Virus record (IMG/VR): IMGVR_UViG_3300042261_001452
Coordinates: 22,640 to 86,639 of that record
Strand: one strand, 5' to 3'
Source of the DNA: a virus
DNA: 64,000 bases
In this document: positions 1,672 to 58,364 of the stretch, one piece after another
Numbering within the stretch: the stretch's first letter is position 1
Layout: the number at the start of each line of letters is the position of its first letter
Notes under the pieces: generated by a model
The model's input: the letters and a program-made list of their open reading frames with translations, nothing else
Told to the model about the DNA's origin: nothing
Databases searched by the model: none
Program-made: the position numbers and the translations under genes

Positions 1672-2043
1672 ATGAAACTTACATTTTCTAAGAAAGAATG
1701 GGACTCTTTAGGTGCTTCCAAGATAAAACTAGCTCAAAAAACAGAACAAAAGACAGAACAAAAGACTGAGAAACAACAACCTCAATTACAGCAAGTTGGT
1801 AATACTTATTATGCCAATTATAAACTAGAGAAAGAGACTGGAGATACTGTCATTACGGTAACTGATGAGGTTGGTAGAATTTTTGCAAGTGTAAGAACTG
1901 GCCCTGATGCTAGAGAAAATGCAAGAGATATTATCAGTGATTATGAAATGATGAGAAACATAGATGACTTATTTGGCCTAAAACATTTCCTAGTTCGTTT
2001 TGGCATAATTAGAAGAAAAGATCAGCTCGTCAAGGCAAAATGA
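1672..2043 (+). CDS. Hypothetical protein with MKLTFSKKEW leader and KTEQ repeats
   Basis: ATG 1672 after AAGGAG RBS and late-type promoter; ORF-track TTG start judged too long. Confidence 0.7.
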   Translation: MKLTFSKKEWDSLGASKIKLAQKTEQKTEQKTEKQQPQLQQVGNTYYANYKLEKETGDTVITVTDEVGRIFASVRTGPDARENARDIISDYEMMRNIDDLFGLKHFLVRFGIIRRKDQLVKAK

Positions 2044-2744
2044 AAATCTTTAAAATATCTCAAAAAGTAACTGAAAAACTATTTGACCTTTATGATGTAG
2101 TATGGAATGCTAATTCTATCGAAGAACTTAAAAATGAATTAGTTAAAAATAATATTAATTTTAATGAGTTAAATCTTAAAGGAAATATTGTGCTTACTAT
2201 TAATCATAATGGTAAGAAACAAGTTATTGATGATAGTCTAAATATAAAAGAAGCAACTGAATGGATTTGGAGCATTTTAGATCATCAGTTAGATCAATAT
2301 ATTGGAGAAGATAACGAAGATTTTAATGAAAAATTTTGGAAAAATGTTTGTACGCCATATGGCAATAATGAACTATATCATGCTACTCGCAGTAAAAATG
2401 TTGACGAAATAAAGGCTCGTGGATTATTAAAGATGAATAAGTCCAGAGGAATTAATAATAAATCAACAGGAAATGCTGTTTTTACAAGTTTAACAGATAC
2501 AGATATTGATTCTTATGGAGAAATTATTATTAAAATAGATATGTGCCAAATGAAGAAAGATGGATACATGCCTGAAGTTAGTATGGAAAAACCAATTGAA
2601 GAGGCAAATTTAAGAAATCAGTTAGCATGGAAAATAGGAATAAAAGAATTTAATGCAATTGATGAATATTCTTCTGAGGGATTATTTGAAACAACTGTTG
2701 TTATTTATGGAAATATACCTCCAAAATATCTTTATTTTGCATAA
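2040..2744 (+). CDS. ADP-ribosyltransferase-fold protein (Tpt1/KptA-like C-terminal domain)
   Basis: LYHAT...IKARGL...AVFTS...YG.IIIKID...GNIPPKYL; MKIFKISQ leader. Confidence 0.6.
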   Translation: MKIFKISQKVTEKLFDLYDVVWNANSIEELKNELVKNNINFNELNLKGNIVLTINHNGKKQVIDDSLNIKEATEWIWSILDHQLDQYIGEDNEDFNEKFWKNVCTPYGNNELYHATRSKNVDEIKARGLLKMNKSRGINNKSTGNAVFTSLTDTDIDSYGEIIIKIDMCQMKKDGYMPEVSMEKPIEEANLRNQLAWKIGIKEFNAIDEYSSEGLFETTVVIYGNIPPKYLYFA

Positions 2745-2745
2745 T

Positions 2746-3390
2746 TTAGATATTAATTCTTATTCCGCTTTTCCAACCATTATAGGCACTATTCTTATCT
2801 ATTACCATCACAACTTTTTCATTAAAGTCATATTTTTTAATCTTCTTTCTTCCCCACTTCCCATATGTCTCATCAGTTAATTGGAAAAAAGCCTTCCCAT
2901 TTTTATTAACAAATAATCTTACCCCGCCATGATCTAAAACTAGTTTAATTAATTTGTTTGGATGGGAAGATAAATTCGCATGCATCGCAAAAGTATCAAT
3001 GTCTAAAAGAGAAATAAATAAGTCCATATTCTTCTTTGCAATAGTACAATGATTAGGCCCACTAACTAAGATGCCTTTTGAAACTATCCAATAATTGCCT
3101 AATAACTTTTCAGATTTTACTTCCTTATTTACCTCTCCTATAATATCTTGTCCAGTAATCTTTTTCCATAAAAATCTAATGTTTTCAGCAATTATCTTTA
3201 ATTCTCCCAAAGATAAATCATTTTCTACCTGCCTTGGAGTAGGTAAATTATAAATAAGCTTTCTTAATTGCTCTTCTCCCACTTTATAACTCTTGGAATA
3301 TAACTTAAGAGATTCAACGTAGGCTGCTAAATCTTTTGCAGATGGCATCTCCCCATTCTTTATCGCAGCTAAACTTATTATATTATTCAC
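2746..3390 (-). CDS. Hypothetical protein
   Basis: 214-aa ORF overlapping the end of the upstream gene. Confidence 0.7.
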   Translation of the reverse strand: MNNIISLAAIKNGEMPSAKDLAAYVESLKLYSKSYKVGEEQLRKLIYNLPTPRQVENDLSLGELKIIAENIRFLWKKITGQDIIGEVNKEVKSEKLLGNYWIVSKGILVSGPNHCTIAKKNMDLFISLLDIDTFAMHANLSSHPNKLIKLVLDHGGVRLFVNKNGKAFFQLTDETYGKWGRKKIKKYDFNEKVVMVIDKNSAYNGWKSGIRINI

Positions 3391-5392: not shown

Positions 5393-5770
5393 TTAGAATT
5401 TTATTGGCGAATTAGATAAAGCAAAATCCGCTAAATCATCGGGAATAACTTTCGGTTTATGAGGAGAACAATCTTTCCACCCACGCCAAAAAGCTCTCCC
5501 AATTGGAAACTTCTTTATCTCGGGATTCAGCATCATCCATTCTCCTTTTATATGTTCTTCTTTTGATTCCCAACCACGAAAATATGCATCTTCAATTTTT
5601 TGTTTAAAATTAGGATCATTTTTATCAATCTTAGAAGTAACAGATTGTTCTTTTTTTTGTTTAAAATTAGGATCATTTTTATCAGTCTTAGAAGTAACAG
5701 ATTGTTCTTTGAACCAACCTGCCTTTTTACCCATTTCTTCCCACTGACTCTTACTTAGCTTTATTTTCAT
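5393..5770 (-). CDS. Hypothetical protein with MKIKLSKSQWEEMGKKAGW leader and 19-aa internal duplication
   Basis: KEQSVTSKxDKNDPNFKQK twice (57-bp tandem repeat at about 5596-5710). Confidence 0.75.
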   Translation of the reverse strand: MKIKLSKSQWEEMGKKAGWFKEQSVTSKTDKNDPNFKQKKEQSVTSKIDKNDPNFKQKIEDAYFRGWESKEEHIKGEWMMLNPEIKKFPIGRAFWRGWKDCSPHKPKVIPDDLADFALSNSPIKF

Positions 5771-5982
5771 ATCTTCTCTTCCTTTTTAATTTGTCTTATT
5801 TGAATTTTACCACCACAGTTTTTACATTTTTTAAATCCATATTGATCTTTAATTACTTTAGGATTTACTTCTCCGCAATATTGACAATATCTTTCTATAT
5901 TCTTCTTTAGAAAGTCTTTCAATAATTCACTGGGAGACGTTTCCTCTTCTTGATTATCTTGCGATATTCTAAATATTCTCAT
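5767..5982 (-). CDS. Small zinc-ribbon protein with MRIFRISQ leader
   Basis: CQYC...CKNC; start moved to 5982 because the late promoter overlaps the upstream ATG. Confidence 0.7.
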   Translation of the reverse strand: MRIFRISQDNQEEETSPSELLKDFLKKNIERYCQYCGEVNPKVIKDQYGFKKCKNCGGKIQIRQIKKEEKI

Positions 5983-6371: not shown

Positions 6372-7238
6372 TTAGGAACCAGCAGTAACTGTAATCTTGG
6401 CAACTGCATAGTTGTTGATGATTACAATACCAATATCCTCATAGATTACCCAGCCCAAACGAAGCTTCTTTGGATCGTCAGCGGGAAGTACGGTGATGTC
6501 CTGACGAACAGGGAATGCACCAACGTATTCTGCGGGGGCTAGTAGGAATACTGTATCTGATGGACACTTAGACGATACGTGAATATCGGCTGTGAAAATG
6601 TGACCAAATAGACCAGTTGTAAGAACTTCCTTCTGAGTGGCCTCATCATAAACAGTCTTACCCCAGTTACGAATATCAATGTAACGAAGAGCGTGTGTTA
6701 CGACCTTGCCAACAGTTAGATCATGCTGCTCAATTGTACCGAAAGCTGAATTAAGAGCCTGAACGGTTAGAGCGCCACCAGTAGAAACTACGGTATTAGC
6801 CGCAGTAACAGCAGCGTTAATAGCGTTGAAGATGTTAAGATCTTCTTCCTTCTGGATGGCTTCCTTAGCCTTAATCTGAGCGCGATCTACAATATAGAAA
6901 CGGCGAGCCTTAACTTCCGATAGACGGATGGTGGGGTTCGTAGCAATTTCGAATGTAGGAACTAGGATTTCCTCACCTTCGGTGAATCCATCTGGTACTG
7001 CGCCTCTACGAGAAATTACGAATGCGGTCTGTCTTACGTCCTTCTCATAACGGGCATAAGCGCCTTGTGGTAGTTCATCTACCATTAATAGTTTACGACC
7101 TACTGCTTGGTATTCTAGAGCGCGGCGGATAGGTTCTACCATTGCTTGTGCAAGGGCGACTCTTCCATCGGGTGTCTCTAGAGCCTGTGCAATTAGGGCT
7201 TCTCTCTCTGCATTTACTGCTCTCTTATCAATAGCCAT
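6372..7238 (-). CDS. Major capsid protein, HK97 fold (encapsulin-sized)
   Basis: Gene order protease/scaffold > decoration > MCP; strongly biased codon usage; motifs LAQAMVEPIRRALEYQAVGRKLLMVDELPQG and LGWVIYEDIGI. Confidence 0.85.
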   Translation of the reverse strand: MAIDKRAVNAEREALIAQALETPDGRVALAQAMVEPIRRALEYQAVGRKLLMVDELPQGAYARYEKDVRQTAFVISRRGAVPDGFTEGEEILVPTFEIATNPTIRLSEVKARRFYIVDRAQIKAKEAIQKEEDLNIFNAINAAVTAANTVVSTGGALTVQALNSAFGTIEQHDLTVGKVVTHALRYIDIRNWGKTVYDEATQKEVLTTGLFGHIFTADIHVSSKCPSDTVFLLAPAEYVGAFPVRQDITVLPADDPKKLRLGWVIYEDIGIVIINNYAVAKITVTAGS

Positions 7239-8176: not shown

Positions 8177-11100
8177 TTATTCGCCTTGATAGCCATATAT
8201 TGTAAGCTTCTGATCAAAATCTTTACTTCCGATTGTGAATGCACTAGCTAGCTTATCCTTAAGACCTTTACTTTCTGATTTGCTTTCTAGCATGATTGCA
8301 GGAATAGCATGACCAGCTTCATTGGTATCTGAGACTGTTGATGCGACTCTAGCGGCTGTCTTAACAGGGAAGAGTTTATCAGCTACTGAAGCGATCTTAT
8401 CAATTTCAAATGTTGATAGAGCCTTAATTGCACTCTCATAGGCGTCCATATCATTGGCTAGTCTGTTATTAGCAATTAGCCATGCTGCAATCTTAGTAGC
8501 CTGTTGCTCTCTAGCCTTAGCTATCTTAGAAACCTGATCCTCTCTTTGCTGGCGAACAACCTTTAACATTTCGTCATTAATTTCGGGCATATCCTTTTGA
8601 ATTTCCTTTTCATTACCCATATAAGCATTATTCATTGGTACATCTGGTCCCTTTAGAGGCTTATTAATTAGAGAATCAGCATCCTTTTCTTGACCCATAT
8701 AGGCTTCTTGACGAGGAACATCTGGTCCCTTATTTGGTGTATTGATAGCAGAATCGGCATCCTTTTCCTTGCCCATATAGGCATCTTTACGAGGAACATC
8801 GGCATCCTTTTCTACTGTATCAACTACTTTCATCTGCTTGGCTTCTTTTGTAACATTCTTGTCTCCAGCGATAACAGTTCCCTTGATTTCATTATTAATG
8901 GCTGGCATACCCTTTTGAGTATTGACTTCATCGCCCATTAGAGAATTACCGACTGGTACATCTGGTCCTTTTAGTGGCTTATTAATTAGAGAATTAGCAG
9001 ATTGTTCCTGTCCCATATAGGCATCCTTACGAGGAACATTTGGGCTATTCATTTTCTTATTAATTAGAGAATCAGCTTCCTTTTCTTTGCCCATATAGGC
9101 ATCTTTACGAGGAACGCCAGCTTCAACATTATTTTCAATTGTCTTTACTAATGTTGGAGTCTTGGCAATCTTTACGATTTCCTCTCCTACCTTTAATACT
9201 CTGTGACTTGCCATAGCTTCAACCTCCTTTGCTGTATTATCAGCTTTTGCCTTGCATTCTTCGCAATCGGCTTTATTACATTCGCATTCCTTTTTGCAAA
9301 TTTCCTTGACTTCATTTTTTTCTTCTTTTTTCTCTTCTTTCTTCTCTTCTGACTTTACAGGAGCCTTATCAGTCTTAGCTTCTTTAACAATTTCTACTTC
9401 AACTTCGGCTTCCTTTAGAGCAGGAAGATCAGAGCCAATATCCTTTTCTAGCTCAGCTTCTTTAGCAGCTACAACTTTCTTTTGTGCGGCGGCTACAGCT
9501 TCCTGATCAATCTTTTGAAGAGTGATTAGGTCGTATTTAGTAAGTCTATCTTCTTTACCAGCTACTACATCCTTTCCAAAAGCATGGACATAGATATTGT
9601 CTGCATGTTCAGAAGCTTTTGCTTTCTTAATGCAACCACAAATGTCACTTGCTTCCTTTAGATTATAGCCTTGCTTTTTCTGATCAGCAATGCATTCATC
9701 CATTGGGTCTTTTTGTAGAGAAGCTTCTGCTAGTCTTATCATATCCTTTACTTTTGTAAAAGCTAGTCTTTGGAGACTCTTACATACGCAATCTGCTAGA
9801 GCCTTACCCTTGCAAGGCCCGAAAGTCGCAACAGTATTTCCACCATAGCTTCTTGCCATTCTTTCAATACAATTTGCCATTGGGAAAGAATCCTTATTCT
9901 GAGTAGCGGCCTTTAGCATTTTGGTCATCTTTAGTGAAGATGCAAACTTAGCAGCCTTTTCTTCGCAACCTTGACACTTAGTATCATGTCTAAGATCCCA
10001 CTTGACTCTTAGATAGCTTTCTTTTGGATTTGCAGCAGCAATTAGAATATCTTTTACTACTTCAGTCTTGCAAGAAGGACAAGTGAATTCTGTATGACCA
10101 TCATCTTCCTTAGAGGCTGTGCAATTCTTTTTACCACAGGCAGGACAGACATGACCATGCGCCTTTACATTGCTACCAATTCTACGGATTGAACCCTTAT
10201 CAATTCTCGTCTGGGCAGCTACAGGTAGGGCTGGAACTTCTGCTGGAGCTTCTGGAGCCTCAGCACCTTCTGGTTCACCTTTCCCCGGAGTCTTACCTAC
10301 GCTTACGGTAGGCTTAATAATCTTAAACTCAACTTCTTTCTTTAGAAGAGCCTCATATTCTGCACCACACTTCTGACAAGTACCCTTAATATTTCCTTTG
10401 TCATTTGTAACATCAACATCAGATGTTCCGCATTCTGGACAGATTGTCCAAGGCATTTGTTGCTCGCCTACAGTTGGGATGTCTTCTGCAATTTCCTTCC
10501 CTTCTGCTGGGGCATCCATTGTAAGTGATTGGATTGCGTCGCCTTGTGGAGCAGCGCCCGGAAGAGCCTGTTCAGGAGCGCCAGAAGCAGCTACGCCACC
10601 GGGAGTACCGGGAACACCACCACCCATAGGAGACTGAGCTATTTTCTTAAGAGCTACTTTCTTTGAGGCCATAGTAGGAGCCATTGCGGGAGCGGCACCT
10701 GTGGGAGCAGCAGCGGGAGCGGCAGGTGGTAGGGCAGATAGAGCATCTACTCCTTCTCCTGTCATATCGCCTTCTGGAACAATCTCTTCTGTTTCGGGCT
10801 GAGTTGTATCGCCAACAGGAATTTCTACTTCTTGATCGCCTTCATCTGTTTGGACTGCAATCTGAATAGTATCACCACTAATAGTAACATTGGTTACAGC
10901 AGCTAGCTTAATATTCTGAGAGGCAAGTGCTCCTTTAGCAAAAGATCTTATATCCTTTTTAAAAGTTGCGCTTTCTTTCGTACTTCCAAGTTCAGAAAAA
11001 TTTGTTTCAATAACAGTATCAGCGCCATTTAACCCTTTTGGATTAAGAATGTTATTGGCTTGTCTTTTTTGACCTTTTTCAAGAGCAGCTAGAATTTCTT

Positions 11101-13705
11101 TTCTTTCTGTCTCTCTCTGTTTCTTTGAGTCAACAGCTTTATCAACTGTAGAAGCTAGAAGAGCATTTCTTAGTTCTTCCTTACGAGAAGTTTTCTTTAC
11201 TTCCTTTGTAGAAGCAAGTTTCTCTTCGACCTTCTTAGTGATTACTGGAACTGCTGTTTCTTCAGAGACAACTTCAAGAGCATCAATTAGAACATCAGGA
11301 TTAATTGTGGAATCTGTAGCAATTTTTCTTAGTCCACCAACAAGAATTTCGGCAATTTGCTGTTTTCCAGCACTTGCAACCTTTAGATTCTTATTGTTCC
11401 AGAATGCAATTCTCTTGGCATAATTAATATCTTCCTTATCTTCAGTCTGCTCAAGAATAGAAGTTGCTAGGTAATAACGATTCTTTACTGAATCTACCAT
11501 AGAAGAGGCAACTAGTTGAACTTCCTCAGGGGTGCAACCGGCAGTAATTATTGTATTTGCAGCAGCTTCAACAACAGCAGCCATGTGATCAGCGGCACTC
11601 TTAAACTGTTTAGGATCACGACTAGCTGATCTTGCCCAAGGAGCAGAGATATCATCAAGTTGTTTTTCAGTTATAACGTCTTTTTCAGACTTTGCACGAT
11701 AATCAGCTAACTGAGCCTGAGTAATCTGATTTGCATCAGTATTTTCTCTTACAGCCTCTAGTTGCTTTTCGCTAATAACTTCTGGAGTAGCATTTTCTCT
11801 CTTGGAGTCAAGTTGCTTTTCTGTAACAACTTCCTGCTCTCCCTTACGTTTAGCTTCTAGCTGGGCTTGAGTTACTTGTTCTGCATCAACGCCTGTTCTG
11901 GCATGATATAGATCTTTCTGCTCAAGTTGTTTTTCGGTAATTACTTCTGGAGCCTTATTCACAGAGGTAGCTCCTGCACTCTTATTTATTTCGGTTGCCA
12001 TATTTTCTCCTTCTTTTTGCTTTTTGGTTAGACTTGCAAATGTTTCTAATAACTTAATAGAAGCTTCTCTTGGTGAATTTTTAATTGTTGTTTTGTCATC
12101 TTCCGTCAAATCCTCATATGTCCAAACAATCCTATCTTCTTCAGAATTTAGTTTATTCTCTGCGACAATTATGAAAGAATCATCTTTCTTACTTATCGTC
12201 AGGCGATTTTCATTATCCTGAATAGAAGGCATTTCTTTTATATACTCGAAAAAGTCTTGTTTTTCCTTCCAAGAATTTGACAAAATTTGCATTACTCTCT
12301 CTTTCTGCTCATTTTTAGCAGCTAAAGTTCTTCTTTTAGACATATTAGACATATCTAAATCTCCCATTTTGTTCAGTTTTTCATTTAAATTTGCTACTTT
12401 TAAGAACATTTCTTCCTGTGATAGCTTATTGTTATTATTACTTATACTGCAAGAACAATTATTTTCTGCAACTTTTTGAATTATATTATCTTCTTGAGAG
12501 GCTTTTGGTCTAATAGGTGCCGTAATAGGTAGTTTAGGTAATTTTAATGCGGAAGACTTAGCAGGAGCAGAAGCAGGTGTTTCTACTGTTGCAGGAGTTG
12601 CTTCTGGTGTTTCTTCGGCACTAATAGGTGTTGGAACAGCCCCACCAGCAGCAGGAGTATTAGGAGTAGGTACAGGAGCAGGAGCGGGAGCAGCAGGAGC
12701 TTGTCCTTCTTCTACATTGCCTGCTGTTCCGGGGACTCCACTATCTTGAAGATTGCCATAACCAGCACCAACTAGTTCATCTACCCATGTTTGTAAATTA
12801 GAAAGAATCTCTACAAGATCAGTAGAAAACTCCATTTCTACTTGTTTTCTATTCTTAATTAAATTAATAGCGATATTTTCTAGTGTTTGTAAAACTTGCT
12901 CTAAGTCTTTAATTTCTTGTTGACCAGCAGTTTTATTTAAAGAAGCTGTCTTAACTAGATAATCTCTTACTGTATTTTCAAGGTTAGCAGCTTTTGTTAG
13001 AAAATCATCATTATGAATAATTCCTTGAATATGGCATGTTGGGCAAGCAGGATCTACTACTGCACTTAATTCAATAAACTTAAGGCCATAATTATACTCA
13101 TAAACTGGATGATCTTTAAATGTCTTAAATTCTCCAGTTATTACATCTCTTGCTTTTCCACTGAATTTTCTACCTTTCTTTTCTTTAATATGAGAACAAT
13201 ATTGCTCTGTTTTTTCGGCCTTATTATGACAAATATTACATACAGAATATTCAACGCTGCAACCCATCGAAACACCACTCACGTATTCTTCTTCAATACC
13301 TCTGCAAATATCTGGATAAGCATCTCTATCTACGAAAGCTACTGTATAAACTGATTTATCTGAGGGATTCCATCTTGCAAAAATTACTTTTCCTCTAGCA
13401 TTTTCAATATTTTGATTATTATGATTTGTAAATATTGGTACTCCTTCAAAGGTCTTATAAGCTTTTACAAGTTCTTCTTCTGAGAAATAATCTCCATTAG
13501 AATTCATCTTATTGGCTTCAATAGCTTTTGCTTCGAAAAATAAGGCATTTGGATGCTTTTTAATCTCAGCAGAAACAATCTTAGATACCTCACTAGAAGG
13601 ATCAATATTAATGCGACCAGAAGCAGCAGTCCGCATCATATAATTAGAACCATTATTTTCTATTGGAGTAACATTAGAAAATGATAAAGCTATTTTTCTT
13701 AACAT
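8177..13705 (-). CDS. Prohead protease (clan SH)-scaffold fusion, 1842 aa
   Basis: N-terminal FTNH...VSMG...FIELSAV with Zn-ribbon insert; low-complexity scaffold with CxxC pairs and internal repeats; lies between portal and MCP. Confidence 0.8.
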   Translation of the reverse strand: MLRKIALSFSNVTPIENNGSNYMMRTAASGRINIDPSSEVSKIVSAEIKKHPNALFFEAKAIEANKMNSNGDYFSEEELVKAYKTFEGVPIFTNHNNQNIENARGKVIFARWNPSDKSVYTVAFVDRDAYPDICRGIEEEYVSGVSMGCSVEYSVCNICHNKAEKTEQYCSHIKEKKGRKFSGKARDVITGEFKTFKDHPVYEYNYGLKFIELSAVVDPACPTCHIQGIIHNDDFLTKAANLENTVRDYLVKTASLNKTAGQQEIKDLEQVLQTLENIAINLIKNRKQVEMEFSTDLVEILSNLQTWVDELVGAGYGNLQDSGVPGTAGNVEEGQAPAAPAPAPVPTPNTPAAGGAVPTPISAEETPEATPATVETPASAPAKSSALKLPKLPITAPIRPKASQEDNIIQKVAENNCSCSISNNNNKLSQEEMFLKVANLNEKLNKMGDLDMSNMSKRRTLAAKNEQKERVMQILSNSWKEKQDFFEYIKEMPSIQDNENRLTISKKDDSFIIVAENKLNSEEDRIVWTYEDLTEDDKTTIKNSPREASIKLLETFASLTKKQKEGENMATEINKSAGATSVNKAPEVITEKQLEQKDLYHARTGVDAEQVTQAQLEAKRKGEQEVVTEKQLDSKRENATPEVISEKQLEAVRENTDANQITQAQLADYRAKSEKDVITEKQLDDISAPWARSASRDPKQFKSAADHMAAVVEAAANTIITAGCTPEEVQLVASSMVDSVKNRYYLATSILEQTEDKEDINYAKRIAFWNNKNLKVASAGKQQIAEILVGGLRKIATDSTINPDVLIDALEVVSEETAVPVITKKVEEKLASTKEVKKTSRKEELRNALLASTVDKAVDSKKQRETERKEILAALEKGQKRQANNILNPKGLNGADTVIETNFSELGSTKESATFKKDIRSFAKGALASQNIKLAAVTNVTISGDTIQIAVQTDEGDQEVEIPVGDTTQPETEEIVPEGDMTGEGVDALSALPPAAPAAAPTGAAPAMAPTMASKKVALKKIAQSPMGGGVPGTPGGVAASGAPEQALPGAAPQGDAIQSLTMDAPAEGKEIAEDIPTVGEQQMPWTICPECGTSDVDVTNDKGNIKGTCQKCGAEYEALLKKEVEFKIIKPTVSVGKTPGKGEPEGAEAPEAPAEVPALPVAAQTRIDKGSIRRIGSNVKAHGHVCPACGKKNCTASKEDDGHTEFTCPSCKTEVVKDILIAAANPKESYLRVKWDLRHDTKCQGCEEKAAKFASSLKMTKMLKAATQNKDSFPMANCIERMARSYGGNTVATFGPCKGKALADCVCKSLQRLAFTKVKDMIRLAEASLQKDPMDECIADQKKQGYNLKEASDICGCIKKAKASEHADNIYVHAFGKDVVAGKEDRLTKYDLITLQKIDQEAVAAAQKKVVAAKEAELEKDIGSDLPALKEAEVEVEIVKEAKTDKAPVKSEEKKEEKKEEKNEVKEICKKECECNKADCEECKAKADNTAKEVEAMASHRVLKVGEEIVKIAKTPTLVKTIENNVEAGVPRKDAYMGKEKEADSLINKKMNSPNVPRKDAYMGQEQSANSLINKPLKGPDVPVGNSLMGDEVNTQKGMPAINNEIKGTVIAGDKNVTKEAKQMKVVDTVEKDADVPRKDAYMGKEKDADSAINTPNKGPDVPRQEAYMGQEKDADSLINKPLKGPDVPMNNAYMGNEKEIQKDMPEINDEMLKVVRQQREDQVSKIAKAREQQATKIAAWLIANNRLANDMDAYESAIKALSTFEIDKIASVADKLFPVKTAARVASTVSDTNEAGHAIPAIMLESKSESKGLKDKLASAFTIGSKDFDQKLTIYGYQGE
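8580..9118 (-). repeat. Coding repeat VPRKDAYMGxExxADSLINK (about 6 copies in two blocks)
   Basis: Visible in the translation and as DNA repeats (gcccatataggcatctttacgaggaac). Confidence 0.85.
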
Positions 13706-16797: not shown

Positions 16798-16870
16798 TTT
16801 TCTATTTAATCCGATACTCAATTGAAAATACCTTTTTTAATTCAAGAAAATATAATTATATTCCTTCCTT

Positions 16871-22898: not shown

Positions 22899-23888
22899 TT
22901 ATTTCCCCTTTAGTTTTTTTTCTAGTTCTTTAGCCAATATACTAGAAACAGTTCTTGTTGCCTCTCTACTCATTTGCATAGGATCATCTTCTAATCTTTC
23001 TCTTTGAATAGATTTCTTATACTGTTGGCTTTGTTCCTTTAACATTTCGCCAGCAGTCTTATCGGGAATCATATTCTTATCAAATCTTGAAGATATTCTT
23101 TCTGACATTGGTGAATTTAATCCATTTTGAGCATTTAATGATTCTGTTGGAAATACTAATCCCTTAGGAATAATATCTCGATGAATCATATTATTGATCA
23201 TTTCAGTCTCTTGGCTTAGACGTTCTTTTTGTCTTGCTTGTTCTCTTTCAGCTTTTTCCATCTTAAGTCTAATGCTAGTATCTTGTTCGCTACTTTCTAC
23301 TAAGTTTTTAATAGCATCTGGATTAGTTATGCTATTCTGATTTTTAGCAGGATTAGTATCTGAATTAAGATTATAATTTTCTCCTCCTCTAACTGGAACA
23401 ATAGCTTTATTTACTAGACTTGGAGCTTCTTTCATCTTGGCTTCTTTTGAAATTATCTGCCATTTTTGCTTTGGCTCCTCAGAAGCGAACTTTTTATCTA
23501 AATTAAAAGGATCGCCTAATGCATTCTTAAGTTGATCTACTTTACCATTATCCTTTGATGCTATTTTAATCATAGTTTCTCCCATATTTGCTGTTTTTGT
23601 AGTAATATTAGCACATCTAAAATTCTTTTGAGATAGCCCACAAGCAAGGGCATACTCTTTAAGATGATTTATTACTTCTTTATCCCAAGATGAATTATAC
23701 CAATAAGATTCATTTTTAGATGCACAAATTTCTATTTTGTCACATTCTTTAGCAATAACTTCTTCTGTTATAGAACTAGCCAAGGTTGTATTAACCATTG
23801 GAGAAATATTTTCTATTTCAAGACTAGCTGTAGCATTAATTGGCCATGCTGGTGCTTTTTGTTCATTAGCCATTTTAAATATTGTCAT
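22899..23888 (-). CDS. Hypothetical protein, MTIFKMANE leader
   Basis: 329-aa ORF in operon. Confidence 0.7.
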   Translation of the reverse strand: MTIFKMANEQKAPAWPINATASLEIENISPMVNTTLASSITEEVIAKECDKIEICASKNESYWYNSSWDKEVINHLKEYALACGLSQKNFRCANITTKTANMGETMIKIASKDNGKVDQLKNALGDPFNLDKKFASEEPKQKWQIISKEAKMKEAPSLVNKAIVPVRGGENYNLNSDTNPAKNQNSITNPDAIKNLVESSEQDTSIRLKMEKAEREQARQKERLSQETEMINNMIHRDIIPKGLVFPTESLNAQNGLNSPMSERISSRFDKNMIPDKTAGEMLKEQSQQYKKSIQRERLEDDPMQMSREATRTVSSILAKELEKKLKGK

Positions 23889-36872: not shown

Positions 36873-37220
36873 TTAAACGCCAAAGCCTTTATCTAAGGCT
36901 CTTTGAGTGCTTTGTGGATCAAGATCTTCAAGAGTTCTAAGACCCTTTGACTTTTCTTTCTGTGGAGTCTTAGCAGTAGGAGCCTGTACTCTACTTAAAT
37001 GTTTAGTAGCTTCTTCTAGTCCTTCTGCTGTTAGTCCTGAATCTAGCTTATCCTCACCTTCGGCTAGCATATCTATTAGTGTTTGGTCTAACCCATCAGA
37101 ACAACTAGATCCTTCAGAGTGTCCAAGAATATGATAGGCTGCACTGCCACTTTCCATATCAAGAGTAATTTGGATTGTTCTTTTTCCCTTTCCTGCTGCG
37201 GCTAATTTAAATATTTTCAT
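36873..37220 (-). CDS. DUF2997-like small protein with MKIFKLAA leader
   Basis: IQITLD.ESG....I.G..GSSC pattern; directly downstream of the DUF1257-like gene. Confidence 0.5.
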   Translation of the reverse strand: MKIFKLAAAGKGKRTIQITLDMESGSAAYHILGHSEGSSCSDGLDQTLIDMLAEGEDKLDSGLTAEGLEEATKHLSRVQAPTAKTPQKEKSKGLRTLEDLDPQSTQRALDKGFGV

Positions 37221-43934: not shown

Positions 43935-45114
43935 CTAGTTTTTTAATTTGAGATGTAGTAAGTCTAACAATCTTACGACCAAAATTTACATCTAGTTCTA
44001 TATGTGTATCACAAGGAATAATCTGAACAACCTCGCCAATTCTATTATAAACACTTTCCAAGTCAGAATCAATGCATTTTACTTTTGTAGGACTATTTTT
44101 AATAAAATCTTCTATTGTATATTCTGTCTTTACCTCTTCTCTACTTCCATCATCTTCTTTAAAAACCCACATTAAAGGATTCCCACTAAACTGTAGTAGG
44201 AAAGGCTTTTTCTTCTTGCTTGCCATATCTAATCCTACTAGTTTAAATACCTGCTTATCTTTAGTTATATTTGGCAAAGAAATATCATTGGTAGAAAATA
44301 ATATATTCATGTCCTCTAAGAAATAATGCCCTAACCCCTCAACTACTGGTTTCCAAAATTTCTGATAAAATGGTAGTTTATTATAAGGATATATCTTAGA
44401 GTATTTCCCCATTGCTGTTATTCCATTTAAAAACATTTTTTTATTGAAAGAAGCCACTAAAAACTGCTCGCCATCCTCAGAATATAGAATCACTTCATTC
44501 CTATCTGGATTAATTTTGGCAATAAACTCTATCCCACAATTCTCAAGAGATTTACATATTAAATTGGCATATTCTTGCAATACCTCTCCTTTAACATTTG
44601 TATCCTCTGAAATATCATGAACATTAGCAGTCTTTAATATCGACCTATTTTTAAAAGATGCAACCTGAGATAATGGTTCTTCTTGTGTGGGTTCCTCTTG
44701 CCCTTCTAAATCTCCCATTGGTGGAAGATCTGGAACATCTGAAATCTCAGGGGATTCTGGAAGATCTTCTGGCTCTGATTCTTGTTTCTTTAATTCTTCA
44801 AGATCCCTCATTAAAAAATCTTTAAATTTATCATTAGCTAACTCTCTAAAATTCTTAAGTGTTTCTTCTAGCTTGTCTTTATCTTTAAAATCTTCTGACT
44901 TTTTAACCCTTAATAATCCATCTACTGTAGAAACAAGCTCCAGATAGACAGATTCTCTCTCTTCGTCATCTTTAAATCCATTTGTTCTTTTCTTTATTAA
45001 GTCAAAAATATTATCGAAATGATTAGTCAACCTTTCTTCTGCGGAAATATCAGAAATAATAGTTCCATCCTCTGGATCATTACTTTCAGCTATCTTATAC
45101 CAATTATTTAACAT
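43924..45114 (-). CDS. Hypothetical protein, MLNNWYKIAE leader, possible C-terminal SH3-like domain
   Basis: ORF track; VKC....VYNRIGEVVQI. Confidence 0.7.
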   Translation of the reverse strand: MLNNWYKIAESNDPEDGTIISDISAEERLTNHFDNIFDLIKKRTNGFKDDEERESVYLELVSTVDGLLRVKKSEDFKDKDKLEETLKNFRELANDKFKDFLMRDLEELKKQESEPEDLPESPEISDVPDLPPMGDLEGQEEPTQEEPLSQVASFKNRSILKTANVHDISEDTNVKGEVLQEYANLICKSLENCGIEFIAKINPDRNEVILYSEDGEQFLVASFNKKMFLNGITAMGKYSKIYPYNKLPFYQKFWKPVVEGLGHYFLEDMNILFSTNDISLPNITKDKQVFKLVGLDMASKKKKPFLLQFSGNPLMWVFKEDDGSREEVKTEYTIEDFIKNSPTKVKCIDSDLESVYNRIGEVVQIIPCDTHIELDVNFGRKIVRLTTSQIKKLDEI

Positions 45115-51076: not shown

Positions 51077-51424
51077 ATGAAGATATTTAAACTAGCCGAT
51101 AACCAATGGTCTGATGAAGGACATGATTCTGTTGAATTACCTGATGCAGAAACTTTTGAAGCTAAACAACAATTAGAGAAAAAAGAGATAGGCGCAACAG
51201 GAGAAACTTTTACAGCCCATGTATTAAGTAAGTTTTTGTCTTCTGGAATTGGACAATCTATCCCTAAAAGTTATTTTACCGCTAATGGATCTGTTGGATG
51301 GTTAAAATTTGATGGAATTATCTATGAAGTAGCGATAAGCCCTGCAAGATGGGGAAATCATTATGACCTATTCAAAAGAGACGAAAGCTCTAATCCTTCT
51401 CCAGCAGATCAAGACGAGATTTAA
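51077..51424 (+). CDS. Hypothetical protein, MKIFKLAD leader
   Basis: AAGGAG RBS. Confidence 0.7.
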   Translation: MKIFKLADNQWSDEGHDSVELPDAETFEAKQQLEKKEIGATGETFTAHVLSKFLSSGIGQSIPKSYFTANGSVGWLKFDGIIYEVAISPARWGNHYDLFKRDESSNPSPADQDEI

Positions 51425-51712
51425 TTATTTTTTTGCTAGAGATTCAATAACGCTCTTAATAGATTCAGCGCCCTTCTTATAAACAACAACGGCTAATAAA
51501 TTGCCATTTAGTGTTACTTGCCAAAATCTACTATTAGGATATCTATCTATTTGAACGTTTGCATTTCCATCCTTTACCCCGTATATATCAAAATCGGGGA
51601 AACTAACTGGTGGAATCTCTTCTGGAAAATCTATTCCCTTTGATGGTTTTTTTGTCCATCCAGCAAGCTTTCCTATATTGTTCCATTGATTTTTAGAGAT
51701 TTTAATTTTCAT
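51425..51712 (-). CDS. Hypothetical protein, MKIKISKNQWNNIGKLAGW leader
   Basis: Shared leader family. Confidence 0.7.
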   Translation of the reverse strand: MKIKISKNQWNNIGKLAGWTKKPSKGIDFPEEIPPVSFPDFDIYGVKDGNANVQIDRYPNSRFWQVTLNGNLLAVVVYKKGAESIKSVIESLAKK

Positions 51713-52510: not shown

Positions 52511-52951
52511 CTAGAAACTCTTTGGGGTTCTATACATTTGACAACTAAGCTGATAATCTTTTGTTCTGCCAAAATTCCTAATAAAACCAAACCGCCTATA
52601 AAACTCTATTAGTCTATTTTTAGAAGTTGTTTCTCCTCTTTCTTTCGAAGCCAAATCTAATTCAATAGTTTTTCCCATCTCATCAGCAATCCTACAAAGC
52701 TCATCCATAAACGTAGTTCCTAATCCTTGCTTTCTCATACCTTTTTCTACTCTTAAATTATGCAATTTAATATTGCCATTATTCAATATAGAAAGATAGC
52801 TATCGACACCTAAAGACTTTTGCAGCCTTTCAAAGTCCTTAATAGGTTTTTCTTCCTTTTCTCTTTTTTGTAAGAGTTGATTTTTTTCTATCTCTTCGCC
52901 CTCAGAAATATCATCAATTGAAAAATTTTCGCATATTCTAATGATCTTCAT
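52511..52951 (-). CDS. GNAT acetyltransferase, MKIIRICE leader
   Basis: RKQGLGT acetyl-CoA motif A, LIEFYRRFGF. Confidence 0.8.
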   Translation of the reverse strand: MKIIRICENFSIDDISEGEEIEKNQLLQKREKEEKPIKDFERLQKSLGVDSYLSILNNGNIKLHNLRVEKGMRKQGLGTTFMDELCRIADEMGKTIELDLASKERGETTSKNRLIEFYRRFGFIRNFGRTKDYQLSCQMYRTPKSF

Positions 52952-53537
52952 TTTGTTTGTCCCAAGCAATATCAATTAGCTCATAAATTAATGCCTCTTG
53001 ATATTTACTAAATTTCCATCTCTTATTTATATTTTTATTACACCACTCAATTGGATCAGTCTTTCTTTCTTCGGATACAGCACACCAATCAGCACACATT
53101 TCCGCTATGTCAATGTCTTTCATCTTGGTGGCATCTATCATCTCTTCTGGAGCCTTATCTCTATCTTTTTTATTTATTAGATTAGCCTTTTTATCACAAT
53201 GATACTCTGGATGATGAGAATTATTTTTCATATGGTGTTCAGTTGCGTCATTTGTCTTGTCTTCCATTCCATCTGGATATTTATACTCCTTGCCGTTTGC
53301 TTTGCATTTATAGTTCCATGTCAAATAGATATAGGGAGTATTTTCTGGATCTTCAAATTTGCTCTTGTCATGATTCTCTGCTCTCTCTGTCAATTCATCA
53401 AATTCTCCATTGCCATACTCTTTAATTTTTTGACAATATTTTTTAACAAGAGCAATATGCTTCTTAGTTCTTTGATCAAACCATTCTTTCATCTCCTCAA
53501 TATTGGATTCCTTTTCTGCTATTTTGATTATTTTCAT
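52938..53537 (-). CDS. HD-superfamily hydrolase (DUF5662-like), MKIIKIAE leader
   Basis: H..HD.SKF...HH...N.HHPEY...EMCADW. Confidence 0.7.
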   Translation of the reverse strand: MKIIKIAEKESNIEEMKEWFDQRTKKHIALVKKYCQKIKEYGNGEFDELTERAENHDKSKFEDPENTPYIYLTWNYKCKANGKEYKYPDGMEDKTNDATEHHMKNNSHHPEYHCDKKANLINKKDRDKAPEEMIDATKMKDIDIAEMCADWCAVSEERKTDPIEWCNKNINKRWKFSKYQEALIYELIDIAWDKQNEDH

Positions 53538-53556: not shown

Positions 53557-55422
53557 TTATACACAAAATTCCTCATGAAATTCTTTTTCCCAGTTAGAGA
53601 CATCTAATTTTGATAAATCATCTAAAAAGTCAGTATTTACATTAGAAATAATATAATCATCTGGTATAAAATCTACCATAATTGTTCCAGCCACATGTTG
53701 AACATTTAAGGCTAAAGATATTGCAGCAGTCATTTCAGATATTGATGCCTCTTCTCCCTTATTAGAAACATCTTCTAGTCTCTTAATTGCCACATTAACA
53801 TTCGCTATAATCTTTCTTACATCTTCTCCCCATACTTGCATATAGCTATTATATAAGATTTCTTTTATTGCATAATGAATGCCACGTTCATCTATTAAGT
53901 GAGAATATAGCCCATCACCCATATTCTCAACATGCCATTCAATAAAGTTATCATCTATTAAATCTACTGATGGCTCCTTATTAATAGATTTTTCTCTAAA
54001 ATATAATCCCATAGAATATAGAATTTCTTCTTGGTCTAACGATAAGACATATTCTTTTGTAACTGCTTTATCTAAAGGTATTTCTCTTAATGATAATTCA
54101 CATCCACCCCACTGCATATTATATTTTTCAAAGAAATTATTCCAATTAGTTATATTTTCATGGGTATCCATTACCATATCGGCCCATTTTTCAGAATCCT
54201 CTATTGGATGTATATCTTTCCATTGATTAAATCCCTTAATAATGAAATCTTTTAGGTACTCAAAATATCTGTTAGCAAAATACCCTAATCTATTTTGAAT
54301 GTTTTCTCTTCTCTTGGGATGAATAGCATTTTCTGTAACTTGATTTAATAAATGATTCTTATACTCTATTTCATGTAACAGAGTAATTAGTTTAGTCGCT
54401 GAAATTTCCCCACTGCCAATCTCCTCTTCAGGTTTTTCTGATAGTTGAGACATTTTACTAGCGCCTTTATACCAATTTATTTTCGCTAAAATATCTTTGC
54501 TTTCCTTGCTAGTTTTACCTATTTCATCACGAATAGATGTGTTATTAGCTATCTTATTCTGACATCTCCCAATCCAAGGGTATGAATCCTTCTTCTCTGG
54601 ATGACGAGCTATCCATTTGTCAAATATATCCCTAAATTCTTCGTCTCCATAGAGTGATTTAAATACTCCCTCCCTACATAATGAAATCCATTCCCCTGAT
54701 TGATACTTCTTTTCTAATTTCTCAAAAAAAACATCAATAATCTTTTCTGGCATAATATCTTTAAGAGAAGTCATCATGGATATTGAAGAATAAGAACCAT
54801 AAGCCTCTATGTATTCATCAAGTTTGTTTATCACAAAAGTAATATTGCTTTTTAAATATGCTACCTTTGCCTCCTTAGGAAATTTATCGTCTTGTAAAAT
54901 TCTAATAATACTAAAAAATCTTCTCCCATTTCTTAATATAGATCTCTTTAAATAAATATTCCCAGGATTATAAGCAATAATATCCTCCAAAGCTGGATCT
55001 GATAATATCTTCTTCTCTATTACTTCTAAAGAAACTCTACCACTTTTTATAATCATCAGTGAAATAGTTTCTCTTTGAATAGTATCAACCGACTCATCCT
55101 CTAATATCTTCTCAAGTTTTTTAACAGGGAAATTAGGATTGTTTAAAAAACATTGAAAAATTAAAGGTGTCATGGAAGGCAGTAAAGAATATAACCTCAA
55201 TAATACTTCCCCATCAGTCTCTTGTTCTATAACTGATTTATCCCCTCTACAATATGCATCACATAATTCTTTTGCTCTGTCTTCTATACTCAATTTTGAA
55301 GATTCTAATGCCCCAAAAGACAATAAAGACGAATTGCTACATTCTATTATACGATTGTAACCCTTCCTCTGTATTATCTCTTTCTTCTCTACCCTATACC
55401 AGTTTTCCTTTCTCTCTTCCAT
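53557..55422 (-). CDS. 621-aa two-part protein; N-terminal half duplicated in the adjacent gene
   Basis: N-terminal ~287 aa near-identical to 55619-56482; internal NWYKGAS motif. Confidence 0.75.
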   Translation of the reverse strand: MEERKENWYRVEKKEIIQRKGYNRIIECSNSSLLSFGALESSKLSIEDRAKELCDAYCRGDKSVIEQETDGEVLLRLYSLLPSMTPLIFQCFLNNPNFPVKKLEKILEDESVDTIQRETISLMIIKSGRVSLEVIEKKILSDPALEDIIAYNPGNIYLKRSILRNGRRFFSIIRILQDDKFPKEAKVAYLKSNITFVINKLDEYIEAYGSYSSISMMTSLKDIMPEKIIDVFFEKLEKKYQSGEWISLCREGVFKSLYGDEEFRDIFDKWIARHPEKKDSYPWIGRCQNKIANNTSIRDEIGKTSKESKDILAKINWYKGASKMSQLSEKPEEEIGSGEISATKLITLLHEIEYKNHLLNQVTENAIHPKRRENIQNRLGYFANRYFEYLKDFIIKGFNQWKDIHPIEDSEKWADMVMDTHENITNWNNFFEKYNMQWGGCELSLREIPLDKAVTKEYVLSLDQEEILYSMGLYFREKSINKEPSVDLIDDNFIEWHVENMGDGLYSHLIDERGIHYAIKEILYNSYMQVWGEDVRKIIANVNVAIKRLEDVSNKGEEASISEMTAAISLALNVQHVAGTIMVDFIPDDYIISNVNTDFLDDLSKLDVSNWEKEFHEEFCV

Positions 55423-56695: not shown

Positions 56696-57146
56696 TGGCA
56701 GATGTTGTTAAATACTCCCATACAGATTCATTATAGTGTGGAGTTCCTTTCCAATAATTCAATGCCGCATTTTTAACTTTTTCTATAGTTTCTTCATCTT
56801 CCTGTGTTCCGTTACCATATGCTTCGCTAAATATCAAATCAATTTCAGTCATCCAATTTAAATCATGCCTTTCAACTTTTCCTAATGGCTTAACAATATA
56901 GATATGCTCAGATGAACCTCCAGCAAGGTCAATATCTTCGGGATTGTCGGTCATATAAACGCAATTGTTTCTTGAAATGAAATTAGATGGTCTGAATTGC
57001 TCTAACTTAAAATGAGAGTCCATTTCATCTTGGGTAAATGTTCCCATGAAATTGCCTTTTTCTGGACTAAGAATAGTTCCATTAGGCAAAAAATGATAAC
57101 TCCCATGAAAGTATTTAATATTGCTTGCTATTTTATATATCTTCAT
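56673..57146 (-). CDS. ADP-ribosyltransferase, Arr-like fold, MKIYKIAS leader
   Basis: YFHGS...GTILSP, VYMT, IYIVKPLG, WEYL. Confidence 0.7.
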   Translation of the reverse strand: MKIYKIASNIKYFHGSYHFLPNGTILSPEKGNFMGTFTQDEMDSHFKLEQFRPSNFISRNNCVYMTDNPEDIDLAGGSSEHIYIVKPLGKVERHDLNWMTEIDLIFSEAYGNGTQEDEETIEKVKNAALNYWKGTPHYNESVWEYLTTSAKVIKEIL

Positions 57147-57321
57147 ACAATATCTTTCGCCTTTAACCTAAAAAATCCTTCTAATATCCCCGAACCTAAA
57201 GGTCAAGTAAATTTGTCGGAGTTTTACACTCAACGCTCACAATATAAACAATTTAACTAAATTATCTCAAAAGGATTTTCTCTATATAAATAAGAATTAT
57301 TTTCAAAAAAGGAGAATAAAT

Positions 57322-57630
57322 ATGAAAATTAAATTAAGTAAAACTCAATGGACTGAAATGGGCAAAAAAGCAGGTTGGATTAAATCATCCTCTAAAACTA
57401 AAAATATAAGAAAATTAGCCGGTACAGTTGATGATGTAATTAAATTCCAATTGTCACAACGCTTCCAAAGAATTATGAACGATCTGCAATGGGCTGAATC
57501 TGTAGCTAAAAAAGGCACCACTACTCAAACACAAGAACTGGCTAATGCTATCTCTTCCTCCTATGAAGATCTAGTCAAAATTAATGAGCAAATTAAAAAC
57601 GCTATCAATCTCATTAGAAAACAAAAATAA
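57322..57630 (+). CDS. Coiled-coil hypothetical protein, MKIKLSKTQWTEMGKKAGW leader
   Basis: GGAG RBS, late promoter at 57272-57296. Confidence 0.75.
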   Translation: MKIKLSKTQWTEMGKKAGWIKSSSKTKNIRKLAGTVDDVIKFQLSQRFQRIMNDLQWAESVAKKGTTTQTQELANAISSSYEDLVKINEQIKNAINLIRKQK

Positions 57631-57671
57631 TGAAAATATTTAAAATAACCTTCCAGATCCAGAAGCTGTAA
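57630..57671 (+). pseudogene. 13-codon remnant consisting of an MKIFKI leader
   Basis: TAATG-coupled MKIFKITFQIQKL*. Confidence 0.4.
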
Positions 57672-57734
57672 AAAATTGGACTAAAGATAGATAATCTATG
57701 TTTATCCAATGTATTCTTCTATCACCTAATATCT

Positions 57735-58364
57735 TCATCCCTCCCCCTCCATCTCTCTTACCATCTCTATAGGTATTATCCCCCTATTATTCTTGCACCA
57801 ATCATAAATACCTCTATATTCCCCCTCCCCATATTCACTCTGATACCCATTCCATACTATGCCCACATTATGTTTCCCACTAGAACATCCAAATATGTCA
57901 TGATATGTACTTGTATCCCCAGCTTCCTCCCCCATGTAACTACTATCATATGCCCTACTAAAATCTTTATCTATATAATAAACCTTTATGAATCTATTCC
58001 AATCTTTAATTATATATGTCTTATCTTTATCCCTACACCAAATAGTAGGCTTCCCATTCTCTAGCCCTAATCCATTTATTATCGGCCTTATATTAGAATA
58101 ACAGATAGGACAATATAAATCATTGCAAAAACCATCTGCCATTCTAACTTTCTTATCTTTTAAGACTATATCCGTAAATTCCTTAGCCCCCCTTATAGAA
58201 TTTGTCCATATACTAGATTTCCCACATCCACATTTATATGTTATCCCCCATGGAAAATGATGCCTGCTATTCCTGTTAAAACTAGTAGGCTTTAAATTCC
58301 CACCACAATATAAACAATTATGGGAATGCCCAGACATATGCTTCGCTATTTTATAAATCCTCAT
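57735..58364 (-). CDS. Cys-rich (Zn-ribbon) hypothetical protein, MRIYKIAK leader
   Basis: CLYC, CGC, CPIC; GGAGG RBS. Confidence 0.7.
   Translation of the reverse strand: MRIYKIAKHMSGHSHNCLYCGGNLKPTSFNRNSRHHFPWGITYKCGCGKSSIWTNSIRGAKEFTDIVLKDKKVRMADGFCNDLYCPICYSNIRPIINGLGLENGKPTIWCRDKDKTYIIKDWNRFIKVYYIDKDFSRAYDSSYMGEEAGDTSTYHDIFGCSSGKHNVGIVWNGYQSEYGEGEYRGIYDWCKNNRGIIPIEMVREMEGEG

Follow-up and report, generated by a model that had tools for sequence, protein, structure and literature searches.

Why should proteins that are otherwise unrelated begin with nearly the same seven to ten residues, and why should the core of that peptide, K/R-x-A, recur inside the head proteins of the same virus? 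Both questions are raised by a 64,000-nucleotide stretch of viral DNA (the window), comprising bases 22,640-86,639 of the 86,639-bp virus record IMGVR_UViG_3300042261_001452 (G000), for which an original prediction had proposed a K/R-x-A code for packaging cargo into the virion and maturing it by proteolysis. The N-terminal peptide (the tag) may be a lineage-tuned capsid-address propeptide coupled to a protease recognition motif, resembling the capsid targeting sequence (CTS) of phage T4 in its logic and the herpesvirus assemblins in its presumed alanine chemistry, a reading by analogy to which we give about an even chance of being correct.

The window is a fragment of a megaphage of the phage G type. 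Among cultured phages the closest is Bacillus (Lysinibacillus) phage G (497.5 kb), whose capsid protein gp27, of solved structure (6wkk), is 56.2% identical to the major capsid protein of the window across 96% of the query. Relatives of this capsid protein occur in 162 of 175 candidate IMG/VR stretches, on contigs of up to 548 kb. The completeness of G000 is estimated by CheckV at 22%, and its set of 86 open reading frames (ORFs), for which start calls are crude, covers the whole record. Two related records serve for comparison: G001, of 93.9 kb and 20% complete according to CheckV, and G002, of 476,248 bp, labelled a provirus in IMG/VR and 98% complete according to CheckV.

N-terminal leaders on unrelated proteins

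The twelve N-terminal peptides of the original prediction all translate as written at their predicted starts:

2040..2063 (+): short leader MKIFKISQ of a 234-aa protein with sub-threshold Tpt1/ART-like matches
5959..5982 (-): short leader MRIFRISQ of a 71-aa zinc-ribbon protein adjoining the major capsid gene
13682..13705 (-): MLRKIALS, weak leader beginning the 1842-aa protease fusion protein
23865..23888 (-): MTIFKMAN, leader on a 329-aa protein whose orthologues begin MNILRVAD (G001) and MKINRTQD (G002)
36751..36774 (-): MNWYKKAQ, NWYK-type leader on a 1235-aa fusion protein
37197..37220 (-): MKIFKLAA, short leader on a 115-aa protein
45085..45114 (-): MLNNWYKIAE, NWYK-type leader on a 396-aa protein
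51077..51100 (+): MKIFKLAD, short leader on a 115-aa protein
52928..52951 (-): MKIIRICE, short leader on a 146-aa GNAT acetyltransferase whose G001 orthologue begins MKIYRIAQ
53514..53537 (-): short leader MKIIKIAE of a 199-aa DUF5662 protein, in which the Pfam domain begins at residue 19
57123..57146 (-): MKIYKIAS, short leader on a 157-aa protein
58341..58364 (-): MRIYKIAK, short leader on a 209-aa Cys-rich protein

Eight of the twelve conform to the strict tag M-[KR]-I-[FIY]-[KR]-[IL]-[ASC] (starts at 2040 on the plus strand, 5982 on the minus strand, 37220 (-), 51077 (+), 52951 (-), 53537 (-), 57146 (-) and 58364 (-)). Without its methionine, this hexamer occurs nine times in the six-frame translation of the window, eight times directly after a start methionine and once, at 34088 (+), antisense to a gene. 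Among the 86 ORFs of G000 all eight occurrences follow a methionine near the ORF start, against a shuffle mean of 0.16 (maximum 2, n=300), while N-terminal composition alone would yield 0.002 strict tags at starts where eight are observed; the tag is position-specific and far commoner than composition predicts. Looser forms are the NWYK-x-A variant at 36774 (-) and 45114 (-) and the near match MTIFKMAN at 23888 (-). The leader MLRKIALS at 13705 (-) is weak, and a form M-phi-x-K-phi-A, with K-phi-A at positions 4-6, is kept in all six aligned sequences that begin at a start codon of their own. NrdJ, thioredoxin, the terminase and the ABC ATPase are without a leader, as had been stated. In G001 the capsid gene is likewise adjoined by leader-bearing small genes.

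The original list lacked one further short leader, which lies outside the window, and a family of longer leaders of around 25 residues, M-K-I-K-L-S-K-x-Q-W-x-x-[IM]-G-K-x-A-G-W-x-K. Four copies of the latter lie in the window and one more outside it:

1672..1737 (+): long leader MKLTFSKKEWDSLGASKIKLAQ, ending in K-x-A-Q
5696..5770 (-): long leader beginning MKIKLSKSQWEEMGKKAGWFK
51638..51712 (-): long leader beginning MKIKISKNQWNNIGKLAGWTK
57322..57396 (+): long leader beginning MKIKLSKTQWTEMGKKAGWIK

In G001 and G002 the long leader ends in G-W-x-K-x-A-[QN], the same core as in the short tags. A homologue search with one long-leader protein was uninformative, returning three proteins of 11 candidates.

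The tag codons vary synonymously among copies (AAA/AAG/AGA/AGG, ATA/ATT/ATC and different Ala, Ser and Cys codons), and the 45 bases upstream of the tagged genes are unrelated from copy to copy, so that selection acts on the peptide. In G001, with a GC content of 41.6% as opposed to 33% in G000, the peptide is retained with lysine replaced by arginine. These observations bear on the suggestion that the tag has no function at the protein level and reflects either optimisation of translation starts in an AT-rich genome or 5' ends copied by recombination. The tag does use AT-rich codons, and no obvious Shine-Dalgarno sequence precedes about half of the tagged genes. Against this, the codons vary while the peptide stays constant and include a conserved GC-rich Ala codon and, in the variants, Trp; the tag persists in the GC-richer G001; upstream DNA is not shared; and a reversed-pattern control gave no matches where the real DNA pattern gave 11 (five records). 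A function-free tag is consequently regarded as very improbable.

The carriers are unrelated, as had been claimed. In an all-against-all BLASTP comparison (E ≤ 1e-4) of 38 tagged ORFs (11 from G000, 17 from G001 and 10 from G002), only three homologous pairs were found, all between genomes and none within one. The carriers include a GNAT protein, a DUF5662 protein, a zinc ribbon, a lysozyme and a rhodanese, and several small ones give only sub-threshold ADP-ribosyltransferase-like matches. A query of the ESM Atlas with the 157-aa tagged protein was uninformative as to its nearest named clusters. In some of the small tagged proteins the tag is immediately followed by the motif aromatic-H-G-[ST] or Y-H-A-T, with sub-threshold matches to Tpt1, Arr, DRAT and HYD1: those at 56673-57146 (-) and 2040-2744 (+), one in G001 (L081:15513-16501) and the phage G ORFs at 178.7-179.2, 246.0 and 446.7 kb, one of which is listed as a member of the 'gp336 multigene family' in a supplementary table. 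The ADP-ribosyltransferase-like tagged proteins may be counterparts of the packaged Alt enzyme of T4.

The sequence of the tag differs by lineage, with the consensus M-K-I-F-K-I-A in G000, M-K-I-Y-R-[LI]-A-Q in G001 and M-K-I-I-K-[VI]-[SA] in G002. Position 4 is F5/I2/Y2 in G000, Y11/F2/I2/L1 in G001 and I7/V1 in G002, and the chi-square value for lineage at this position was reached by none of 20,000 label permutations. Since the tags of unrelated proteins change together within a phage, the pattern points to one shared partner in each phage that co-evolves with the tag.

Phage G carries its own version, M-K-R-L-I-K-K-[AS], and the idea is thus directly testable at the bench. The pattern [KR]R[LI]x[KRS]K occurs in 14 of the 690 phage G ORFs, in all 14 within the first 13 residues, while the shuffle mean is 0.78. 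Comparison of the 38 tagged ORFs with the phage G ORFs by BLASTP gave a single match, a NUDIX protein whose 'tag' probably arose by chance; this ORF was left out of the lineage consensus and is still counted among the 10 tagged ORFs of G002. Across 80 loci centred on the capsid gene (1.37 Mb) there are 29 copies of the hexamer; 12 follow a methionine, and all 12 lie in six loci with at least 79% capsid identity. An IMG/VR-wide scan with the DNA pattern of M-K-I-[FY]-K-I-A gave 56 stretches, 36 with an ORF of at least 40 aa. Many of the 56 are chance matches or internal to tape-measure-like proteins, and the exact tag is therefore confined to the clade.

A run of eight small tagged genes lies at 13.4-15.9 kb of G001, and eight of the ten tagged ORFs of G002 fall within 415-450 kb (binomial 3e-8, for a window chosen post hoc). 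This distribution bears on the possibility that the tag sends proteins not to the head interior but to another destination or partner, for instance the membrane, a chaperone or a compartment for replication or assembly. The dispersal of the tagged genes in phage G would suit such a role, as would the enzyme-like nature of many carriers (GNAT, DUF5662, lysozyme, rhodanese). A phage nucleus is, however, unlikely given that phage G is listed outside the chimallin-encoding family of jumbo phages (PMC13282480). The tag also lacks the hydrophobic stretch that export needs, and in G002 the tags cluster with the head genes, which renders another destination improbable.

A genome-wide code, as the original prediction termed it, does not hold. 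The record comprises only around 22% of its genome, and as the window is a fragment of a phage-G-type megaphage such a claim cannot be judged from it alone; in the 476-kb G002, tags and motif are confined to the head region.

The K/R-x-A motif in head proteins and the prohead protease

The internal motifs RIAQ, ITAQ, KTAQ, RTAS and SKAS are all present where the original prediction had placed them, and internal K/R-x-A does exceed chance. The 51 window proteins (18,437 aa) contain 42 copies of [KR].A[QS], where 16.1±3.8 are expected, and 31 of phi[KR].A[QSN], where 8.1±2.8 are expected, counts reached by none of 500 within-protein shuffles in either case. Among 12 class permutations of the pattern, [KR].A[QS] ranks first in G000 (51 vs 17-25), G001 (62 vs 16-35) and G002 (135 vs 74-98). 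An unbiased scan covered every pattern of the forms a.bc, ab.c and abc outside the first 15 residues of each protein. In it, K.AS ranks second of 1792 in G001 and K.AQ seventh of 1524 in G000, and when the head region of G002 is compared with the rest of that genome, V.TA ranks fourth and K.AS seventh of 1622; the patterns ranked above those of K-x-A type are mostly low-complexity repeats. Over the first 400 kb of G002 (0-400 kb) the motif has a density of 0-0.70 per 1000 aa, which rises to 1.25 at 400-420 kb and to 2.50 at 420-440 kb. This last peak surrounds the capsid gene, while permuted controls remain at 0.04-0.58 throughout.

The head genes of the window and the internal motifs in question are the following:

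6372..7238 (-): major capsid protein, without leader, 56% identical to phage G gp27
8177..13705 (-): 1842-aa protein, its first ~250 residues matching a head-maturation-protease PHROG
13001..13573 (-): prohead protease domain of the gp21/assemblin fold, approximately residues 45-235 of the 1842-aa protein
13616..13636 (-): motif MRTAAS, immediately N-terminal of the protease domain, in a segment with a predicted local distance difference test (pLDDT) value below 50; [KR]-x-A in 11/11 orthologues
12920..12955 (-): double motif VKTAS/LNKTAG, immediately C-terminal of the protease domain; the second, K-x-A-[SG], in 11/11 orthologues
16871..21238 (-): portal (intein; DUF559 domain at the C-terminus)
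21056..21073 (-): motif NMRTAS, immediately preceding the conserved core of the portal
17447..17461 (-): motif ISKAS, separating the portal body from the C-terminal DUF559 domain
41252..43135 (-): large terminase
34852..34878 (-): internal SNSWYKQAQ of the NWYK-x-AQ type in the 1235-aa protein, at the same place in the G002 and G001 orthologues
35617..35664 (-): fusion junction NWYEGIKKNAQ/MKIEK in the 1235-aa protein
54457..54480 (-): internal INWYKGAS in a 621-aa protein, ~30 residues past the end of its 287-aa paralogue

The protease is classified only by fold search. Sequence searches with the domain gave no PDB chain at E ≤10 and no Pfam family with a meaningful score. In a Foldseek search, the model of the domain, built from a 21-sequence alignment (mean pLDDT 80.4), matched T4 gp21 (5jbl) first (E 3e-3, probability 1.0) and herpesvirus proteases next. 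Structural alignment with VIA-align gave a Z score of 9.8 for gp21 (5jbl; root-mean-square deviation 3.1 Å over 128 residues), 8.9 for varicella-zoster virus (VZV), 8.8 for pseudorabies virus (PrV), 7.5 for herpes simplex virus 2 (HSV-2) and 7.4 for human cytomegalovirus (HCMV), the herpesvirus proteases as a group spanning 7.2-8.9, with a background of around 6 for unrelated MCE-domain proteins. The original assignment to the same protease clan as the T4 and herpesvirus enzymes is thus borne out by the model at the level of the fold. His95 and Ser146 are invariant in the alignment of 21 protease sequences. Five cysteines of the region 12926-13705 (-), C156, C159, C170, C221 and C224, are likewise invariant in the 21 sequences, and more distant relatives carry an additional Cys/His-rich insert; the five may form a zinc site inside the gp21-fold protease.

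On both sides of this domain the motif is retained where the linkers otherwise vary, with M-[KR]-T-A on the N-terminal side and [VI]-[KR]-T-[AS]-[AS] followed by K-x-A-[SG] on the C-terminal side. The stand-alone protease gp19 of phage G is bracketed alike, by LVKTAA and LLKIAS. Before the portal core, [KR]-x-[AS]-[ASQ] is present in 7/7 sequences, four of them distant, and in the 329-aa and 531-aa head-region proteins the motif is similarly retained while its flanks vary. The 1455-aa portal product contains an intein with a LAGLIDADG endonuclease (residues ~171-421) and a DUF559/REase-like C-terminus (1353-1429); the portals of G001 and G002 are without an insert at the aligned place.

Tag and internal motif might alternatively serve for docking only and never be cut, binding the scaffold region of the 1842-aa protein, the portal or the shell interior much as encapsulin cargo does. 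Their position, head specificity and lineage tuning would fit docking equally well, a strict cleavage site is hard to square with the variability of the residue that follows Ala in the tags, and the tag would be very short for a propeptide. The motif nonetheless brackets the protease domain just where protease-scaffold fusions have their release sites, as in pUL26 of PrV (PMC4498786), and it stands at the junctions of fused modules. Pure docking is accordingly judged unlikely next to an address that is also cut.

The enzyme might also be the host's, with the tags mimicking a host substrate, in the way that the capsid and scaffold proteins of the staphylococcal phage 80alpha copy the N-terminal extension of ribosomal protein L27 that is cut by Prp. 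The 170-aa head-region protein at 16309-16821 (-) has orthologues in L013-L078, and those in more distant relatives start with phi-N-L-x-K-x-A-[GS]-[RK]-[KR], which resembles the published L27 motif MLxx(D/N)LQ(F/L)F'A(S/H)KK (PMC9405229); the host of phage G is, moreover, a Firmicute. The window tags, however, do not fit the L27 motif, Prp (PF04327) was found in none of three phage records, and the phage has a prohead protease of its own, bracketed by the motif. We hold L27 mimicry to be very unlikely, and the phage's own prohead protease is the preferred candidate.

K/R-x-A also marks gene-fusion junctions in two proteins, of 621 and 1235 aa, and the internal NWYK copies at 34852-34878 and 54457-54480 were absent from the original list. 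In the 1235-aa protein, the methionine of MKIEK (residue 382) aligns with the start methionine of the G002 orthologue, which begins MKIIKVSQ. The 1235-aa tagged protein (33067-36774 (-)) and its G002 orthologue share an H-E-A-T-H (HExxH-type) motif, which suggests a zinc peptidase-like module, and a common C-terminal PolyA_pol head domain. The genes at 53557-55422 (-) and 55619-56482 (-) are paralogues identical in their first 25 residues and in the 20 bp upstream, and the longer (53557-55422) has an extra C-terminal module after the internal NWYKGAS; the pair looks like a recent duplication accompanied by fusion or loss.

These internal copies are pertinent to a further alternative, that an unfoldase or protease recognises the tag at the N-terminus and so sets the lifetime of accessory proteins; candidates would be ClpXP of the phage or the host and the two AAA+ proteins of the window. 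N-termini of the Met-basic-hydrophobic-hydrophobic type resemble one class of ClpX N-terminal signals. ClpP genes occur in three of the four records searched (one in G001, two in G002 and one in phage G), ClpP and ClpX have been found in phage G particles, and two PF00004 AAA proteins are encoded in the window. A terminal degron would, however, leave unexplained the conserved internal copies, the restriction to the head region in G002 and the motifs flanking the prohead protease, and ClpP was not found in the G000 fragment (~22% of the genome). Timed degradation is therefore considered a poor candidate and improbable.

A proposed cargo address with a protease motif

In the preferred reading, the combination of T4-like tag logic with an assemblin-like motif and architecture leads us to interpret the tag as an address or propeptide and K/R-x-A as a protease motif. 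We infer that the tag M-K/R-I-(F/Y/I)-K/R-(I/L)-A-x, together with its NWYK-x-A and long versions, would act as a modular address or propeptide into the assembling head by binding a head component. The K/R-x-A core would be the motif that the phage's own gp21/assemblin-fold prohead protease recognises in head proteins. This protease probably cuts at K/R-x-A, with the scissile bond after Ala being a guess, and its targets would be the protease-scaffold fusion, the portal and neighbouring head proteins. The tagged proteins would be packaged and then ejected.

A bolder extension, tentative and clearly less probable than the above, is that phage-G-type megaphages possess a programmable cargo code, in which a seven-residue tag, retuned by each lineage, is enough to load arbitrary enzymes into the largest phage heads known and is clipped after Ala, while the same motif cuts polyprotein-like head proteins. 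The cargo would then include ADP-ribosyltransferase-like, acetyltransferase and lysozyme proteins, and the system could be the phage counterpart of the herpesvirus Ala-Ser specificity, which we likewise regard as possible but doubtful.

Several observations count against cleavage and packaging. No experimental or proteomic sign of either was found in the phage G literature examined, and the main text on the phage G proteomics is silent on the tagged ORFs. In the 12 window tags, the residue after Ala is Q in three, E in three and A, D, K, L, N and S in one each, and in three tags Ala is itself replaced by Ser or Cys. The strict internal motif is present at just 2 of the 86 N-termini of G000, where 1.08 are expected. 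The corresponding counts are 5 vs 2.56 in G002 and 4 vs 3.13 in phage G, with enrichment only in G001 (8 vs 1.26). As the strict motif is not enriched at the N-termini of three genomes, the equation of tag core and cut site rests on the low-information K-x-A. Some of the internal sites (701, 774 and 932) lie inside conserved segments, and their conservation is therefore uninformative. In phage G, [KR].A[QS] is no outlier among the permutations (110 vs 56-113) and shows no internal enrichment, and its tagged genes are scattered between 12 and 447 kb, no more than 4/14 of them in the head region. The gp27 chain in the PDB comprises 280 of 282 residues, making a large capsid propeptide unlikely. 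Lastly, the largest group of tags in the window (51-58 kb) lies ~45 kb from the capsid gene.

A tag that does serve as an address label would allow the likely set of injected proteins of an uncultured megaphage clade to be read from sequence, and very large capsids could be filled with foreign proteins by means of a minimal peptide. If the protease cuts beside Ala in K/R-x-A, it would link the phage prohead proteases, for which cutting after Glu is what is so far known in T4 and the phiKZ group, to the Ala-Ser specificity of the assemblins. No printed description of the tag was found in the only searches made: those with six tag peptides returned irrelevant papers, and a 2026 jumbo-phage review does not mention capsid targeting, propeptides or ejection proteins.

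Neighbouring genes and comparison with known systems

Other genes of the window code for NrdJ, a CCA-adding enzyme, a trypsin-like protease, two AAA proteins, thioredoxin and ferritin. The AAA proteins, of 1405 and 647 aa, are encoded by adjacent genes among the head genes (23892-28109 (-) and 28189-30132 (-)), and each has a classic AAA domain (PF00004). Between the protease and capsid genes lies the gene of an untagged 176-aa protein (7297-7827 (-)), in the position of phage G gp26, which is annotated as capsid decoration; no separate scaffold gene was identified. At the 3' end, the region 59000-64000 has a GC content of 0.37-0.59, as opposed to ~0.31 elsewhere; its GC skew is reversed and its ORFs are all short, one being SprT-like. 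Scans for tRNAs and Rfam families gave no matches there, and the region may represent inserted foreign DNA or a join made in assembly. Outside the window, a LAGLIDADG homing endonuclease gene (G000:C1:13564-14748 (+)) lies on the opposite strand in an otherwise one-directional block.

The diverse internal proteins of T4 carry a 10-residue CTS that attaches to the scaffolding core and that gp21 cleaves off at L/I-x-Glu (PMC3012670, PMC9026906); the CTS can load foreign proteins into the head (PMC9026906). As in T4 IPI-III and Alt, a very short N-terminal peptide is present here on unrelated, fast-evolving accessory proteins (PMC3012670, PMC9026906). The tagged genes also occur in runs, and the eight-gene run of G001 resembles the T4 internal proteins, which share only the CTS (PMC3012670). 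A predicted prohead protease of the gp21 fold is encoded here as well (Z 9.8; Foldseek probability 1.0). Unlike in T4, where the cut falls after Glu in L/I-x-E, the core is K/R-x-Ala, with Glu as the next residue in 3/12 window tags. The G000 phage is, in addition, not T4-like, its capsid protein being of the phage G type, and the putative protease is fused to a tail of 1600 residues.

The sites of herpesvirus pUL26 are Ala-Ser bonds. In this protein an N-terminal protease is carried on the scaffold and released at its own sites (PMC4498786), and a substrate of the HCMV protease spans Asn-Ala-Ser-Ser (PMC13486704). The window likewise encodes a protease of the same predicted fold at the N-terminus of a longer polypeptide (1842 aa), in the architecture described for pUL26 (PMC4498786), and the bracketing motifs, in which Ala is invariant and the next residue is Ser, Ala or Gln, are candidate sites. 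A Lys or Arg third before the putative cut, as needed here, is a difference from the assemblins, and dozens of sites on many proteins together with cargo tags are not herpesvirus features.

The giant phages of the phiKZ group process many of their head proteins at S/A-x-Glu (PMC9026906, PMC10052503). In phiKZ, 201phi2-1 and SPN3US, many head and ejection proteins have N-terminal propeptides bearing a three-residue motif of the protease, and the large capsid contains protein cargo (PMC9026906, PMC10052503). In these phages the cut follows Glu (S/A-x-E or A-x-E) and the propeptides measure 20-254 residues, whereas the putative propeptide described here is as short as seven residues and has a conserved sequence of its own. 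The L27-like extensions of 80alpha are also short, shared among head proteins and removed next to Ala (PMC9405229), but the motif differs, and the enzyme there is a host cysteine protease, while a predicted serine-type prohead protease is encoded by the phage here. Capsid targeting and prohead proteolysis are systems of an already known kind, and what would distinguish the phage-G-type megaphages is the combination of a T4-like tag logic with an assemblin-like motif.

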